A stretch of DNA of 63,485 nucleotides, the filler included, from Reclinomonas americana ATCC 50394 (lineage: Eukaryota), in the NCBI GenBank assembly GCA_048213135.1. It is 14 parts of 14 records of this genome, joined end to end, with 100 filler letters (N's around TTAATTAATTAA, not from the genome) between each part and the next. Parts side by side here need not be neighbours in the genome. Positions count along the whole stretch, not along the records: positions 22,574 to 31,843 come from AFZH01018508.1; 13 more parts are not named here. The stretch is one strand, 5' to 3'. The translations under genes and the position numbers were made by a program. The notes beneath the pieces are model-generated. The model was not told where the DNA came from. It worked only from the letters and a program-made list of their open reading frames with translations, and did not search any database. Shown piece after piece: positions 25,036 to 30,949 of the stretch (position 1 is the first letter of the stretch; each line of letters opens with the position of its first letter).

Positions 25036-28000
25036 CTACATGCACACAGTAGCGAATATGGCTGTTGCCATCCCTCCCGCTGCAGACATGGCCGCATTCG
25101 CCACCGTCCCCGCTGTGATATCATCGCTCACAAGCGCTGGCGCCACAGCCGCCGCATCCACCTCTCCGACAGCAACTGCGACCACCTCCGGTACCATCAC
25201 GTTGCCTGCTCCTGCTCCCACCACCATCGGCACCTCACACAACCGCTTCAGCTCGTCGTGTACATACGACGCCGATACGCGCGTCGCTTGAGGCCGCTGC
25301 ACCAGACGCATAATGAGTCCACCACACTAATTACAACATGGTATTTTCAATTGCACGCAACCCAGCACTGCCGAATAAGACTGCGAATGGCTACTGGCAT
25401 GGCCGTCCGCACATCCTCAGCGTCAAGCTCGCCCGGCTGCACGCCAGCTCTCATAAGTTCCCCAATGCTCATCAGCGGCACTCCACTGAACGGCTCTCGA
25501 CGAGTGGCAATGAACCACAGTAGAGATCCCAGACTATATATGTCCGCCCTTTCATCATACTGCGAGTGGAGAAGGAAGCGTGAGTGCATACAACGTTGGT
25601 TAAAGGTACCAATCTGCTGCGCACCGGCATTTCTAATATTACTTCCGGAGCAGCATACGCTGCTGTTCCACGATTCGACTGCATCTTGCCAAAAGTCCCG
25701 TGAACGGCCGCTTCTCCAAAATCACAGACCTTGGCTTCCAGTCCGTCCTCACTGATGAGAATGTCTGCGGACGCAGAGGATTAGCAACACTTCTGGTGCT
25801 GAGGAGGTTTTCGGTCCCTGCCCCCCCCCCCCCCAACGTAGGGCTCTCGCGCTCTCTCTTTCTCACACACACAACCTGTCGACTCTGTACACGTATCGAC
25901 ACACGTTCTGTGTCCAAAACAGAGCACCACGTCTTCAGAGAAACGCAACTCATCGACTTGAGATCACGATGTACCACCCGCCGCGAGTGCATATAGACCA
26001 CCGCCGATGCTACTTGCACGAGCAGTCCGAGCAGTTGTTGCGTTGCCACTTGTCCGTTCTTCACGAGGTCTTGCAGCGTTTCTGTGACTCCACGTTCATC
26101 TTCATCGCCAACGTATTCCATAACGAGACCGAGGCCGCTCGGGTCGTCATCGCACACGGCTCTCAGTTTCACGATGTGTGGGTGGCTGTGCTAGGGCGTG
26201 TGACTGGCCGTGATTAACAGAAAAGGAAGGCGTCAGTAAACAGAGCGCAACTCGAGGAGCATCAGCAGAGATTGTTCGTTCTCGAAGCTGCCGTGAATCC
26301 GTCTCCAGTCTGCAGACTGCGCATCGAGCGCTTGCTGCCTGACCAGGTACCTCTTGTACGCCACCGTCTGTATCACGCCGCCGACACGGAGAGTGGCATG
26401 GAATACTGCGCTTTGCCCTGCACATGGCAAGCAAATAGGATCAGCGGCTTTCCCAACGCAGGACAAGGCATCCATGCAGCAAGACCACACCGCACCATTC
26501 CCAATCTGTCTTGCGATCACCAAATCGGTAAAAGGCACAAGCGGGGCGCGAACTTCGATTCTGGATGCCCTCTCAGATACTTGCTCGGCAGTCACCGTTA
26601 TACGGCTCACATCTGCACTGGAGAATCAGAGAAAAAGGCAGCAAGAAACTGCCCACGCGCAGCGCAGTCTTCGCAACTCTCGTGCACATCAAGCAAACGA
26701 CGAAGACTCTCATGCCCGTCCGGGAACAGCATGCAGAGGGAGTCGCGAACCAGTCTCATGGTGTTCACATACTCTGCATCTTCGAGTGCTGAAATGCGGG
26801 CCAGGTGCGACACGCGATGCCGAACGTCTCGCAAATTTATCACGGCCTGAATCTGTAAAACGAGACGTCGAGTTAGACTGACGAGAGCACATGCAGAGGC
26901 CGATCGGGAAACAGACCTTGGCGTCGTCTGCAAGCAGCCGCACCGCCAGTCGGTCCTCGTTCGTGATGGGATTAAGACGCACGAGGCTCTCCATGAGGTC
27001 CTCATCACGACAGGCAGCGAGAGAAACGAAAGTCGTGTGTAAAAGCAGCGTGCAAAGCAGTGCAACGTCCATGCCCGTGGTCACTCCACTCCTCTTGAAT
27101 GCGCGAACTGACGCATAGTTGGAGTGATACAGTTCAGCTGAGCGCATTCGGAGATGACCACGCCTGTCCAGGGTCATTCGGCAATATCTGACAACCAGGC
27201 TAAGTGAGGAACACAGCAGCGATGGAGGAAAACGCGCACAGCACACCTCGGCGGTGGAGAAGGGAAGCAGAGTTGCTCGACATCGAATTCGGCTGGGAAG
27301 AATTCCGCGACGAGCTGCTGCAGCAGCGACCCAAGTGCCAATGGAATGATCTCGTGAACGACCTCGGTAAGCATTAGCATTTGACGGCGGTCACTGGATT
27401 CGAAAATGAGAACAAGACCTACGCAGACAAAGAAAGGACAATATAATACCTGAGAAAGTCAAGCGGGAAGAGTGCTCGCAGCTGGCGCTCCTTCTCTTCA
27501 ACCGTGTGTAGCAACTCGTCGCGTTCAGCAGTGACAGAGGACAGCTGGGCACGCAACACTCTGCTGTCGGCGGTGGCGGTGCGTTCCGCACAAACCAGCA
27601 CTTGTCGGAGACGTCGGCGGTCGACGTTCGAGGACGCCAGCTCGAGTCTCAGCTGATTGTTATTGACGGCGAGCGCGTCGGAGGCACGCTGGGAAGCGGC
27701 AAGGTCTGCAGCTAGCTGCCGCCGCTCGGCAGTAAGCGATTCCACAGCGGCTTGAGCGGCAGCGAGTTGTTCAGCGAGCCGCTGTCGATCAGCATTGACC
27801 GATTCCATATCGGACCGAGCACCAGCAAGATCGTCAGTGAGCCGCTGATGGCCAGCAGAAATGGCGTCGACAGCAGCCTGGGAGGCAGCAAGTTGTTCAG
27901 CCAGCCGCTGACGATCGGCAGAGATGGTTTCCACAGTTGCCCGAGAGGCAGCAAAGTTTTCAGCGACCTGGTCGCGCTCCGCAGTGATGGAACCGATTGT

Positions 28001-30949
28001 ACTGGTTGATCTGTCGACTGGCAACAGGAGATAAAGGGAAAAAAAGGTGAGAATCACAACGGTGACCAGGATATAAGCAACTAAGTCAACAAACCAAGCT
28101 GCGACAACTGGCGGTCTTTGTCCCGCAACTGCTGTTGCACAGTGGTCAGCTGAGTGGTCAGGTCGTCCATGTCATGCTGAGACACAGTCAGCTGGGATAC
28201 GCCGTGATCCCACTGGGCCTGAAGCTGGATAAATTGCTGTTGTACTTCAGCATGAACCCGAAGCAGATCTGCGTTGGTTCTCTGCAGTTCGACTACATCG
28301 AATTCATGCTCTTGCTGACGCCGTCTCCACACTTTCTCTTGCAGCTCTTGCTCCTGCTGAGCGTCTGCGAGATCGCTCTGGAGCTGGGAAATGAGAGCGT
28401 CCTTGTCTGCAATCAGACGAGTCACAGCGCTGATATCAACCAGCTGAGTGGAAACGAGCGGAAAACAGAAACATGCGTGGTGCGCGAATGCACTTGTAAG
28501 CAGGAACATAAACGGACAAAACAAAAGCATTAAAGTCTTACCTGCCGCGGAGGTGCTGCACTTTCGTAACATGATACACAACAACTGTGAGACGCGAGTG
28601 AAGAGCATGGAATACCACATTGCACGATCGGAAACGAGCGCACCTGGTTGTAGAGGCGAAAGAGAGGGGGGTGATCGTGGCCGATTCAGCGGTTGCTGTT
28701 GGCGCGAAGAAAGACGGCGGTCGAGTATGTCAGCCAATTTTTGCATACCCTCCTCTCGAGCCCACTGAGCCGCTGTCTTGCCCGCCTTGTTAACCAGGGG
28801 AATGAGGTCAGGGAATCGAGTGGCCAGGAGTCGCACAATGTCCTCGTGACCTCTACAGGCAGCGAAATGCAGTGCGGTCGACCTCGGTTCGCCCGCTAGG
28901 TCGTTGGCGACCGCCCGCACCATCTCCGGCGGACATCGTTGCTCATCGGCAAGCAACCACTCAACAACATGCAACTGCCCATAGTGAGCAGCAATCATCA
29001 TTGGCGTCCCGCCATCATCGGCGACAATTTGAGCGAGCTGTGTTCCGACGCCACTCTCCTCCCACAGATAGTCCAACACAAAGAGATGTCCTTTCCAGGC
29101 AGCACAGAAAAATGCCGAGTAGCCATTCCCATTCATCTCCTCCTTCGATAACAGAATGTCAGGGCCCTTACGATCCACCAACGCGCGCAGTGCTTTCACA
29201 TCGCCATCCTTCGCCATCTGAAATGCTCTTTTCCTCTGTGGCTGCCGAGGAGCACTGGGGACAAAGAGCACGAAGAACACAAACAGCAAAGCATGCAGAG
29301 TGAGAATGACGGCATGTGCATCCTGAGACAGTACAATTCTCACACCGCAAACCTCATTTCTACATCAACGGCAAACCAAGCAGCGAAGCGCGGAGCGATT
29401 TATGAGCAGAAGACGCAGGTATCAATCACGACACCAGACAAAGCAACCAAACCTGGTGCTGCTGGCAACTGATGAGGGGGAGATCGCGCAGGAGGAGACA
29501 ATACTTGACGCGGTAGTCGCAGAGCAGAGAGAGCGTCAAGAATCTCGGTCACACTCTGCTTGCCTTCGGCGTGTGCCCACTGAGCCGCCGTCCCGTACGC
29601 CTTGTTGACCATGGGAATAAGGTCGGGGAAGCGAGTGGCGAGGAGTCGCACAACGTCTTCGTGGCCTTGTATGGCAGCATAGTGCAGTGCAGTGGACAGC
29701 GGTGCACCAGCTTGGTCGTTGGTAACCGCCCGTACCATTTCCGGCGGACATCGTCGCTCATCACCAAGCAACCAGTCCACCACTTGCAGATGACCATTTT
29801 GAGCAGCAATCATCAGGGGCGTCTCGCCGTAGTCGGTGACAAGTTGTGCGAGCTGGGAACCAACGCCACTCTCCCACAGGTACTGCAGCACAGAGAGATG
29901 GTCACTGGCAGCGGCACGGTAAAACGGCGATCCGCCCCTCTCATCCATCTCGTCTCCTGTTAACAGAGCGCGTGCGCCCTTACTCGCCACCAAATCGCGC
30001 AGCGCGTTCACATCGCCATCGGCCGCCATCTGAAATGCTCTTTTCCTCTGTTGCTGCCGAGGAGCACTGGAAACGAATAACATGAAGAACACAAACAGCA
30101 AAGCATGCATATTGAGAACGACGGTATGCGCATCCTAAGTCAGTACAATTCTCACATCGCAAACCTCATTTCTACATCAACGGCGAACCAAGCAGCGAAG
30201 CGCGGAGCGATTTATGAGCAGAAGACGCACATATGAATTACGGCAATAGACAAAGCAACCAAACCTGGTTCTACTGGCAGCTGATGAGGGGGAGATGGAC
30301 GCGGTAGTCGTAGAGCGAAGAGAGCGTCAAGAAAGTCGGTCACACTCTGCTTGCCTTCGGCGTGTGCCCATTGAGCCGCCGTCATTCCCACCTTGTTGAC
30401 CAAGAAAATCAAGTAGGGGTCGCGAGTGGCCAGGAGTTGAGCAACGGCCTCATGGCCCTTGCAGGCAGCGAAATGCAATGCACTAGACTGCGGTGCACCA
30501 GCAAGGTCATTGGTGACCGCCCGCAACACCTCCGGCGGACATCGTCGCTCATCACCAAGCAACCAGTCCACCACTTGCAGATGACCATTTTGAGCGGCAA
30601 TCATCAGTGGCGTCCCACCAACGTCGGTGACCCGTTTAGCAAGCTGGGACCCAACGCCACTCTCCTCCAAAAGATAGTCCAACACAGAGAGATGGCCTTC
30701 CTGAGCGGCACAGTAAAATGCCGAAGCGCCAGCCGCACTCATCTCCTCTCTTGTCAGCAAAGTGCCCGCACCCTCCCGCACCACCAACGCGCGCAGCGCT
30801 TTCACATCGCCTTCCATACCCATCTCCCATGCTCTCTTTCTCTGTTGCTGACGAGGGACACTGGAAACAAACAACATGAAGAACACAAACAGAAAGCGAG
30901 TGAGAATCAATCCTGACAACAACTTTATCACTCGCCCTGCAAACCTCAT
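25036..30949 (-). CDS. Ankyrin-repeat (3 tandem modules) - coiled coil - HEPN (DZIP3-like) - TKL-type protein kinase
   Basis: Exons 30949-30945, 30860-30265, 30171-30165, 30066-29453, 29359-29353, 29254-28644 encode ANK. Coiled coil ~28440-27450. HEPN motifs MDVALLCTLL and LRDVRHRVSHLARISALEDAEY (RHRVSH at 26822-26805). Kinase motifs IGNG, VAYK, FENE, HRDLKSMN, VCDFG, YAAPE, DIYSLG, QCW; TAG 25038-25036. The junctions checked are GT-AG and phase-compatible. Confidence 0.8.
27680..27990 (-). repeat. 63-nt (21-aa) coding tandem repeat forming a heptad coiled coil
   Basis: ISADRQRLAEQLAASQAAVDA / VNADRQRLAEQLAAAQAAVES / LTAERRQLAADLAASQRASDA. Confidence 0.85.

Follow-up and report, generated by a model that had tools for sequence, protein, structure and literature searches.

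Does a single gene of Reclinomonas americana ATCC 50394 combine ankyrin repeats, a putative nuclease and a kinase on one chain? The question was raised by a first-pass annotation of the window, that is, the whole analysed stretch of 63,485 nucleotides drawn from assembly GCA_048213135.1. It had described one spliced frame joining an ankyrin array, a long coiled coil, a helical domain proposed as a candidate HEPN-type nuclease, and a kinase, and all the features that it named were found in the sequence at the positions it gave. If the HEPN reading is true, the gene would be a variation on the RNase L/IRE1 theme, in which a non-KEN HEPN domain stands before a signalling kinase.

A single gene of 14 exons

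On the minus strand, 14 exons and 13 introns (47–206 nt, all GT...AG) give a single open frame of 4446 nt, encoding 1481 aa without internal stop and ending with a stop codon at 25038–25036 (Table 1). In-frame ATGs at 30949, 30877, 30823 and 30817 are candidate starts; 30823 was taken in the 1481-aa model, the true start being uncertain. The donor sites of the 13 introns are degenerate, GT alone being constant.

Table 1. Exons of the proposed gene, with the parts of the predicted protein that they encode
Feature	Position	Strand	Product and content
Exon 1	30260..30823	-	aa 1–188, first ankyrin unit, start uncertain
Exon 2	29448..30053	-	aa 189–390, second ankyrin unit
Exon 3	28636..29241	-	aa 391–592, third ankyrin unit
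Exon 4	28095..28443	-	aa 593–708, first coiled-coil-like helical exon
Exon 5	27450..28017	-	aa 709–897, second coiled-coil-like exon, 21-aa repeat
Exon 6	27247..27393	-	aa 898–946, start of orphan helical (HEPN-candidate) region
Exon 7	26917..27199	-	aa 947–1041, contains D-V-A-L-L
Exon 8	26611..26852	-	aa 1042–1121, contains R-H-R-V-S-H, three further predicted helices
Exon 9	26496..26560	-	aa 1122–1143, kinase beta1 and start of G-loop
Exon 10	26242..26417	-	aa 1144–1202, kinase N-lobe, VAYK (Lys 1165), alpha-C region
Exon 11	25950..26190	-	aa 1203–1282, hinge to catalytic loop, HRDLKSM(N)
Exon 12	25625..25764	-	aa 1283–1329, DFG, activation segment, APE
Exon 13	25362..25559	-	aa 1330–1395, kinase C-lobe
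Exon 14	25036..25296	-	aa 1396–1481 and stop, kinase end, Ala/Val/Gly-rich tail

Using a codon-usage score trained on the Pfam-supported exons, we found the proposed frame to be the best of six in exons 6, 7 and 8 (+0.21, +0.07 and +0.17 bits per codon, respectively), and exon 14 scores +0.16 in that frame. The first 30 codons of exon 7 score weakly (−0.15). Two introns score negatively in all same-strand frames and do not exceed +0.01 in the reverse orientation. Neither frameshift nor stop interrupts the Pfam-supported parts. Since each of the 13 introns spans at most 206 nt, there is no room for separate promoters between the parts. At the level of the sequence, the analysis confirms one real 14-exon gene that encodes ankyrin repeats, a helical rod and a kinase; the single spliced frame first proposed for them is borne out by the open 1481-aa model.

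Ankyrin array and helical rod

Ank_2, Ank, Ank_4 and related Pfam families match all three ankyrin ORFs, Ank_2 with E-values of 2.9e-17 for the first unit (ORF 30212–31003), 8.4e-19 for the second and 2.8e-18 for the third. We count about 12–15 repeats over ~590 aa. The units are three tandem copies of ~800 bp each, with 77–80% DNA identity including the intervening intron, and both junctions share an in-frame donor (GTTGCT), an acceptor (CGGCAG) and an intron of 206 nt. The array appears to have been built by recent triplication of an exon-plus-intron unit. Several alternative in-frame splices are also possible at these junctions. For the passage from exon 3 to exon 4, the sole phase-0 acceptor listed is at 28443.

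Exons 4 and 5 encode ~305 aa rich in Ala, Leu, Gln and Arg, with 1 Pro and 4 Gly. TRF detects in exon 5 a period of 63 nt (21 aa) in 3.6 copies (27741–27964). All the Pfam coiled-coil families that match exon 4 are sub-threshold (e.g. ATG16, 1.8e-4, 22.2 bits versus a cut-off of 33.7 bits), as are the 24 coiled-coil-type families that match exon 5 (best CENP-F_leu_zip, 6.7e-6, 26.7 bits versus 34.5 bits). The lag-7 hydrophobic autocorrelation of the rod, a crude measure, is flat (0.03). Judging from composition and sub-threshold family matches, aa 593–897 probably form a long, coiled-coil-like helical rod. The long coiled coil of the first-pass annotation is retained here as a coiled-coil-like helical rod.

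Kinase and C-terminal tail

Besides the G-loop GNGQSAVF at aa 1142, made by the splice at G/GTGCGG, the spliced product has all the motifs that had been reported as intact: VAYK at aa 1162; HRDLKSMN at aa 1276, whose last N is created by a splice; DFG at aa 1297; and APE at aa 1321. Pfam Pkinase matches exon 11 (E=1.5e-11, 44.7 bits versus a cut-off of 31.7 bits) and exon 12 alone (5.8e-7, 29.6 bits), and the 58-aa piece from exon 10, searched alone, gave no Pfam family. The donor of exon 12, CCG/GTGCGC, is a presumed one, picked so that APE and the conserved Asp that follows it are normally spaced. At E<=0.001, 116 PDB kinase sequences match exon 11, and the best PDB matches of exon 13 are EGFR (3.3e-4), MLKL (3.5e-4), TAK1 (4.8e-4), RIPK1 (0.002) and FGFR4. 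Judged from its complete catalytic motifs, the kinase is apparently active; we propose a Ser/Thr, possibly TKL-like enzyme. No KEN domain was found after the kinase, and the 86-aa exon 14 matches no Pfam family.

A candidate HEPN domain before the kinase

Directly before the kinase lies a helical region of 224 aa (aa 898–1121), encoded by exons 6–8. The motifs from which a nuclease had been proposed are present as placed: MDVALLCTLL in exon 7, with D-V-A-L-L at 27069–27055 (D991), and R-H-R-V-S-H exactly at 26822–26805 (R1052, H1057), followed by ISALEDAEY. Near both motifs, hydrophobic residues are presumably spaced much as in DZIP3-type HEPN domains. In a Kyte-Doolittle scan of the protein with 19-aa windows, the most hydrophobic window falls in exon 7 (2.02 at aa 992). 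It lies between two normally cytosolic domain types, and we read it as probably buried core and not as a membrane span; it may be a core helix with the acidic D991 within it. In 100,000 composition-preserving shuffles of the 223-aa domain, R[NDH]x3H arises in 9.7% and Rx4-6H in 26%. Since chance alone gives the former so often, the R-x4-H motif is a weak indication when taken alone. The exon 7 and exon 8 motifs in this order, 30–80 residues apart, arise together in 0.16% of shuffles, for a pattern defined post hoc. The residue following R is H, and passages of PMC3710099 describe a polar N, D or H at this position as typical of the HEPN motif.

Profile searches covered exons 6, 7 and 8 one by one. 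The comparison with HEPN_DZIP3, Swt1 and KEN profiles that had been proposed as a check came out negative for these single exons: none of exons 6, 7 and 8 matches any Pfam family at E<=10, HEPN_DZIP3, HEPN_Swt1 and KEN included. Two long ORFs covering the helical region likewise have no Pfam family, PADLOC returned nothing for the three exons, and NCBIfam and PHROGs gave for them only unrelated rows at chance level (E 0.11–0.25). Word-index searches with exons 7 and 8 found no relatives, nor did searches of metagenome, viral and prokaryote collections turn up any. The sole phmmer match of exon 7 among 1.84 billion protein representatives was rejected as spurious, because the protein is repetitive and matches in 11 weak stretches, with unrelated Pfam families.

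Modelled alone with AlphaFold2, exon 8 gives, at low confidence, a generic four-helix bundle (pLDDT 64; helices 7–19, 26–42, 48–55 and 60–75). The motif occupies residues 11–16, in the C-terminal half of helix 7–19, and is followed by a loop and a 17-residue helix. Exon 7 alone reaches a pLDDT of 42.7. In the ESM Atlas, exon 8 has a recognition score of 2370, higher than the tool's line of 2300. Its best family-bearing neighbour (0.87, 183 of 256 shared features) is a mollusc cluster with DUF4559 in 16% of members; other neighbours carry HEPN_DZIP3 (0.84, in 10% of members; 0.77, in 55% of members) and HEPN_Swt1 (0.77). These scores are all below the tool's line of 0.9, and four of the ten best family-bearing matches share a family or clan, a share at which the tool rates the family as ‘probably wrong’. 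With exon 7, the Atlas gave no HEPN lead (recognition score 1890, neighbours in Vps4_C/AAA_lid clusters). DUF4559 is named as the domain of human CXorf38 in a passage of PMC4554924, and CXorf38 is counted among the HEPN families in a section of PMC3710099.

In favour of the HEPN domain first proposed stand the motif, its placement at a helix end in the low-confidence model and the sub-threshold Atlas neighbours of exon 8; the profile searches and the searches for relatives gave no credible match. We consider that the chances of a HEPN fold for aa 898–1121 are evenly balanced, and that an active RNase is rather unlikely.

Proposed mechanism and alternative readings

We tentatively read aa 898–1121 as a highly diverged HEPN-type domain akin to those of eukaryotic DZIP3 and CXorf38. 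In this scheme, the ankyrin repeats would be a platform for protein or ligand binding, and the coiled-coil-like helix would align two or more chains and so pre-pair them. Two HEPN-like domains would then be brought together, either by binding at the ankyrin repeats or when the kinase autophosphorylates in trans, and their paired R-x4-H motifs would make up a site that binds or cleaves RNA without metal. The kinase, besides, should itself signal. Ligand sensing and activation by dimerisation, like any part played in antiviral defence or cell suicide, are conjectural. For the HEPN-kinase reading as a whole, with the predicted product a cytosolic multidomain enzyme of an intron-rich eukaryote, we would put the chances slightly short of even.

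There is also a substantial, if minority, probability that aa 898–1121 are not HEPN at all. The region would then be a lineage-specific helical module. It might extend the kinase for regulation or dimerisation, continue the rod as a linker, or form a four-helix bundle with brace helices in front of a TKL kinase, resembling that of MLKL. The protein would be a signalling kinase scaffolded by its ankyrin repeats and coiled coil. The R-x4-H motif would be coincidental, as befits a pattern that chance yields in about 10–26% of shuffles. No profile, HEPN or other, matches the helical exons, no homologues were found that could reveal constraint on R-x4-H, and both the generic bundle modelled for exon 8 and the Atlas calibration of its family lead point the same way. 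Moreover, the kinase C-lobe is about as near to MLKL, TAK1 and RIPK1 as to anything, and in these kinases regulation comes from helical modules at the N-terminus. Against such a module stand the three HEPN families among the exon 8 neighbours, in which no second fold class is seen repeatedly, the polar residue favoured next to R, the position of the motif where a helix gives way to a loop, and the upstream acidic residue, which sits suitably far away within a hydrophobic helix. The MLKL-like form must in addition accommodate a kinase that has kept all its catalytic motifs, MLKL being a pseudokinase.

It is improbable, in our view, that the domain has a HEPN fold without catalysis and acts as an RNA-binding or protein-docking module, a role that has been suggested for several eukaryotic HEPN groups, leaving the kinase as the only enzyme. 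We know of no demonstrated or published RNase activity for the DZIP3-type family. Passages of PMC3710099 describe apicomplexan Swt1-like HEPN proteins that bind RNA without cleaving it, and rate the motif of DZIP3 proteins no higher than ‘mostly conserved’; the same source gives the combination of R, a following polar residue and H, complete here, as the mark of active forms. Still less probable is an error in part of the gene model, whether two transcripts, skipped or assembly-duplicated ankyrin unit(s), or an untranscribed pseudogene. The protein is absent from the library of 1.84 billion representatives, and the degenerate donors, the weak codon usage in the 5′ third of exon 7 and the alternative junctions between ankyrin units would fit such an error. 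Against it, the 4446-nt frame is uninterrupted over 13 consistent GT-AG junctions, no intron exceeding 206 nt, the junction is identical at both ankyrin-unit boundaries, codon usage speaks for the proposed frame in all the exons tested and against the introns, and the Pfam-supported parts are free of frameshifts and stops.

Comparison with known systems

The HEPN-kinase reading can be set beside several known systems. With the ankyrin-repeat TKL and MLKL/RIPK-type kinases, the protein shares the HRDLKSxN signature. MLKL, which is among the best PDB matches of the C-lobe (with EGFR, TAK1, RIPK1 and FGFR4), also has a helical module directly N-terminal to its kinase. MLKL, however, has no ankyrin repeats and is a pseudokinase, and no four-helix-bundle or HeLo match was obtained for the present protein.

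The DZIP3/hRUL138-like and CXorf38-like HEPN families of animals and Capsaspora are given as fused to ankyrin repeats and to immune or apoptotic modules (PMC3710099, Table 1; passages of PMC8260672). The motif form here (R, polar residue, x3-H) is theirs, and the Atlas neighbours found with exon 8 include both families. In contrast, the Pfam HEPN_DZIP3 and DUF4559 models match none of exons 6–8, and the host is an intron-rich eukaryote, with no relatives of the protein detected. Passages of PMC3710099 list a kinase fusion for KEN, and in them none is given for DZIP3/CXorf38-like HEPN. The present chain can be compared with both KEN-bearing kinases. The order that the first-pass annotation described holds: because the putative nuclease-like region precedes the kinase, the architecture is unlike those of RNase L and IRE1.

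IRE1 consists of a sensor, a transmembrane helix, an active kinase and a KEN RNase. As in IRE1, an apparently active kinase adjoins a putative HEPN-type nuclease and oligomerisation-driven activation is plausible, but nuclease and kinase stand in the opposite order, no KEN model matches, and no evidence of a membrane span or lumenal sensor was found, the most hydrophobic window lying inside the helical domain. RNase L is made up of ankyrin repeats, a pseudokinase and a KEN-type HEPN RNase. The protein described here differs in carrying its helical domain before the kinase and not after it, in matching the KEN model with none of its pieces, in retaining every catalytic motif of the kinase, in the ~305-aa helical rod between the ankyrin repeats and the remainder, and in an array of about 12–15 repeats that seems to stem from recent exon triplication. 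It resembles RNase L in uniting N-terminal ankyrin repeats, a kinase fold and, if our reading of the helical domain is right, a HEPN-type R-x4-H motif in one chain, and in both proteins activation would be expected to come from the pairing of two chains.

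Architecture of the gene and its surroundings

At the level of the sequence, a single polypeptide unites ankyrin repeats with a long helical rod, then an orphan helical domain and, after it, a kinase whose catalytic motifs are intact. Joining stop-to-stop frames on the minus strand of this eukaryotic DNA (G+C content of the window 49-62%) gives 14 exons and 13 introns, hence a coding sequence of 4446 nt and a product of 1481 aa with no internal stop (see the table of features). All 13 introns are of the GT...AG type and measure between 47 and 206 nt. The first-pass annotation had proposed one spliced reading frame, and every junction that it implied was reproduced, including the one linking ...LLADDAK with IQAVINLRDVRHRVSH and the one that creates the final N of HRDLKSMN. 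The order of the parts, with a putative nuclease-like domain placed before the kinase, is also that of our spliced model. Moving one donor a codon earlier (G|GTGCGG) produces a normal glycine loop, GNGQSAVF, and from kinase anatomy we infer that another donor lies 18 nt later, at CCG|GTGCGC, which would put APE and the conserved Asp that follows it at their normal distance again. The start codon is ambiguous among four in-frame ATGs.

The reading frame was also examined with a codon-usage score, for which the ankyrin and kinase exons supported by Pfam served as the training set. The proposed frame ranked first of six in all three exons of the helical domain, and likewise in the last exon and the second coiled-coil exon; two introns had negative values in every frame of the same strand and no more than +0.01 on the opposite one. 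The first 30 codons of exon 7 are the weakest coding part (-0.15), although none of the three same-strand frames scores better there. None of the 13 filler blocks, each made of two runs of exactly 44 N around 12 bases (26 runs in all), falls inside the gene, and no paralogue was found elsewhere in the window. The protein is absent from a library of 1.84 billion protein representatives; therefore, either the genome is unannotated there or the gene was never called. Judged on its sequence, the gene is real, and it is unannotated as far as the libraries show; we consider it very probable that it is one single gene.

Features of the gene and of its surroundings, in window coordinates
Feature	Coordinates	Strand	Remarks
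Gene model, 14 exons	30823-25036	minus	1481 aa
Candidate start codons	30949 to 30817	minus	4 in-frame ATGs
Ankyrin triplication	28760-30907		exon-plus-intron unit of ~800 bp
Tandem repeat in second coiled-coil exon	27741-27964		63-nt (21-aa) unit, 3.6 copies, 67% match
Helical domain, exon 6	27393-27247	minus	domain spans aa 898-1121
Helical domain, exon 7	27199-26917	minus	carries D-V-A-L-L
D-V-A-L-L motif	27069-27055	minus	
Helical domain, exon 8	26852-26611	minus	carries R-H-R-V-S-H
R1052-H-R-V-S-H1057 motif	26822-26805	minus	
Last exon	25036-25296	minus	contains the tail
Upstream pair of copies	31362-31482 and 31675-31797	plus (ORFs)	~120 bp, 85% identical
Filler blocks (examples)	3673-3772; 31844-31943		the second lies next to the upstream pair
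Microsatellite-rich DNA	32002-32173; 32705-32743; elsewhere		long (CTCA)n, (CA)n, (AG)n
GH20 hexosaminidase gene, multi-exon	33883-37069	plus	3 ORF pieces hit consecutive portions of the Pfam model, best E 4e-57
P-type cation or lipid-transport ATPase gene	60483-63161	minus	one ORF piece matches Cation_ATPase (2.6e-13); a typical P-type motif is read in the piece beside it

When 31 other long ORFs of the window were scanned against Pfam, only the hexosaminidase and ATPase genes were recognizable (27 ORFs had no match), and nothing in these surroundings thus points to a cluster of immune or conflict genes. No Rfam family was found in the window. Just upstream of the gene lie two similar copies. 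The plus-strand ORFs in which they sit read as hydrophobic segments rich in leucine, with similar short motifs after them; this pair may represent a further duplication, of a small gene or an exon. The intergenic DNA is full of long microsatellites, which account for many pseudo-ORFs of the SLSL, THTH or HSLT type.

Ankyrin array and helical rod

The ankyrin repeats announced by the first-pass annotation are borne out by Pfam Ank families in all three N-terminal units (Ank_2 at 63-68 bits, against a cut-off of 27.3 bits), and the array comprises roughly 12-15 repeats. Its three units are tandem copies that are 77-80% identical in DNA, over an alignment that spans the intron, and both unit boundaries have the same in-frame junction, with a GTTGCT donor, a CGGCAG acceptor and an intron of 206 nt. 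From the sequence, this triplication looks like an internal exon duplication within one gene, and the array would appear to have expanded recently.

The ankyrin array is followed by a rod of 305 aa, rich in Ala, Leu, Gln, Arg and Asp and nearly devoid of Pro and Gly, which gives dozens of sub-threshold matches to unrelated coiled-coil families. Where the first-pass annotation had described a long coiled coil, we call the segment coiled-coil-like, by composition and by these matches; a crude heptad test was flat. A tandem repeat of 21 aa lies inside the second coiled-coil exon.

Kinase and C-terminal tail

The glycine loop, VAYK, HRDLKSMN, DFG and APE are all found in the spliced product, in agreement with the intact kinase of the first-pass annotation. 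Pfam recognizes Pkinase on exon 11 with 44.7 bits (cut-off, 31.7 bits), and exon 12 alone reaches 29.6 bits. Since all of these motifs are present, the kinase is predicted to be active and should be catalytically competent. It carries HRDLKSxN, which we take to be a TKL-style signature. Among solved structures, the best matches of the C-lobe exon are EGFR, MLKL, TAK1, RIPK1 and FGFR4 (E 3e-4 to 6e-3), and those of the catalytic exon are EGFR, AMPK, TYK2, MARK and JAK1. It is reasonable, as a provisional assignment, to regard the kinase as TKL-like. A bacterial Ser/Thr kinase with 40% identity to it (P0002, from the word index) is uninformative as a relative.

The kinase is followed, within the last exon, by a low-complexity tail of about 81 aa, rich in Ala, Val and Gly, whose last 19 residues are moderately hydrophobic (Kyte-Doolittle 1.54). 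The 86 aa of this exon matched no Pfam family at E<=0.1. No KEN domain (Ribonuc_2-5A) was found by Pfam after the kinase, nor on any piece of the gene scanned.

The helical domain as a candidate HEPN

According to the text of the HEPN survey (PMC3710099), HEPN RNases are characterized by an R-x4-6-H motif in which the R is usually followed by N, D or H, and helix 2 often contributes an acidic residue that completes the site. Both motifs claimed for the helical domain are indeed present, D-V-A-L-L in exon 7 and R-H-R-V-S-H in exon 8, and R1052-H-x3-H1057 conforms to the HEPN pattern, including the polar residue after R. D991, a candidate for the helix-2 acid, belongs to a hydrophobic helix and precedes R1052 by 61 residues; no other stretch of 19 residues in the protein is as hydrophobic as the one that contains D-V-A-L-L. 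The motif alone occurs in 9.7% of shuffles of the domain, and by itself it means little statistically. Both motifs in this order and spacing occur in 0.16% of shuffles, for a pattern that was defined after seeing the data. An AlphaFold2 model of exon 8 alone, computed with no alignment (pLDDT 64), places the motif within the C-terminal half of one helix; a loop comes next, then a helix of 17 residues, and the helices before the motif belong to other exons. This fragment model agrees weakly with the motif position in the HEPN survey.

Profile searches gave no family for the single exons of the domain. None of the three matched Pfam at E<=10, HEPN_DZIP3 (PF18738) and the CXorf38-like family (PF15112) included, in searches of one exon at a time, with each exon corresponding to no more than a part of the 144-position model. 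The two ORFs that cover the domain likewise matched no Pfam family, and PADLOC, NCBIfam and PHROGs gave no meaningful match on its exons. In the word index, exon 7 drew 220 candidates, none at E<=0.001, and exon 8 drew 37, none at E<=10. Among metagenome contigs, 595 pattern matches to exon 8 and 511 to exon 7 led to no confirmed relative, and none of 25 pattern matches in viral contigs was confirmed. The five rows returned by phmmer for exon 8 against PDB sequences (E 0.65-1.5) included no HEPN protein. PF18738 was not found in 402 prokaryote genomes (the genome G001 and 401 others of its phylum) or in 14 control genomes.

Two isolated candidates were rejected. The sole phmmer match of exon 7 in the 1.84 billion representatives, the database protein P0001 (E 9.9e-7), is considered spurious because this protein of 1487 aa is internally repetitive, aligns through 11 weak matched stretches and carries SPMAP1-like and other unrelated families. 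The sole locus found in prokaryote genomes (L001, positions 2001-2174) has 33% identity over residues 1-47 of the query, exon 8, with an E-value that refers to the candidates alone. We judged it a chance match because it rests on the shared search word CMLFPDGH, within a bacterial ORF of 368 aa that has no other likeness.

A lead, and the sole positive signal from the databases, came from the ESM Atlas, in which exon 8 has a recognition of 2370, above the line of 2300. Its neighbours include mollusc clusters with some members carrying DUF4559 (0.87, with 183 of 256 features shared), other matches to mollusc clusters with some members carrying HEPN_DZIP3 (0.84 and 0.77), and a bacterial cluster with HEPN_Swt1 (0.77). 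DUF4559 is described as the domain of human CXorf38 in the text of PMC4554924, and CXorf38 is counted among the HEPN families in that of PMC3710099; three HEPN families thus recur among the neighbours, and no other fold class does. All scores for exon 8 lie below the line of 0.9, the top two matches are unnamed viral clusters, and four of the ten best family-bearing matches agree, a share at which the Atlas rule of thumb counts the family as 'probably wrong'. Exon 7 had low recognition and met only Vps4_C/AAA-lid clusters. The exon 8 result raises the odds of a HEPN, as a lead and not as a test.

Readings of the protein

The interpretation given in the first-pass annotation is partly supported; its main proposal, a putative HEPN RNase, draws on the motif, a low-confidence fragment model and sub-threshold neighbours in a language model. 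On these grounds, we would put a HEPN fold for the helical domain at about an even chance, and we doubt that it is an active RNase. One reading of the whole protein is that of a protist kinase-nuclease resembling RNase L and IRE1 and built independently of them, in which a non-KEN HEPN RNase of the DZIP3/CXorf38 type would stand upstream of a competent TKL kinase, and an expanded ankyrin sensor together with the coiled coil would exert control by pairing. Activation would then lead to both target phosphorylation and RNA cutting, as a stress, antiviral or suicide switch. We advance this scheme tentatively and think it rather unlikely as a whole. Another reading, the main rival, which we rate somewhat short of even, is that the domain is a helical module specific to its lineage and regulates a scaffolded TKL kinase, perhaps in a role like that of MLKL. 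The motif would then be a coincidence of the kind that the shuffles of the domain produce. The empty profile searches of single exons weigh on this side; the joint occurrence of the two motifs and the recurrence of HEPN families among the exon 8 neighbours weigh on the HEPN side.

In the most likely working, the rod would pair chains constitutively, the ankyrin repeats would bind a ligand or a partner, and the kinase would act on itself by trans-autophosphorylation. Provided that the helical domain is a HEPN, the two copies in a pair would jointly make up an R-x4-H site that binds or cuts RNA, and the kinase could also signal in its own right. The logic would be that of RNase L and IRE1, with other parts in another order.

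Comparison with known systems

In MLKL-like executioners, a four-helix-bundle (HeLo) killer domain and a brace precede a pseudokinase. The kinase of the present protein has all the catalytic motifs and is no pseudokinase, so that the protein departs from this group; it may still work like MLKL. IRE1 and RNase L are kinase-coupled HEPN RNases that act as central stress and antiviral switches, and in both of them KEN follows the kinase. As read from its sequence, our protein is not a KEN-domain kinase, this defining domain having been looked for after the kinase and not found; it may still work like one.

The nearest candidates for the helical domain are the DZIP3 and CXorf38 families, which gave no profile match with the exons searched singly. 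The text of the HEPN survey describes these families as fused to ankyrin repeats and to NACHT, Death and CARD modules in animals and Capsaspora (PMC3710099), and cnidarian surveys report the same immune-module fusions (PMC8260672). In the text of the former, whose full architecture lists are in Additional file 1, kinase fusion is recorded for KEN and not for the DZIP3 or CXorf38 families (PMC3710099). The first-pass annotation knew of no description of the present architecture, and we likewise found none in the literature searched, including the text of PMC3710099, PMC4554924, PMC8195603 and PMC8260672.

Should the helical domain prove not to be a HEPN, what remains is an orphan ankyrin/coiled-coil kinase gene that is unannotated and has one exon triplicated in recent times. 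If it is one, the range of DZIP3/CXorf38-type HEPN domains would extend past animals and their close relatives, and this protein would be a tractable one for asking whether such a HEPN cleaves RNA. It would represent a second, independently assembled case, in a protist, of an active kinase joined to a HEPN, here of a different type, and the coupling of kinase and HEPN known from IRE1 and RNase L would be a recurrent solution rather than a single invention.
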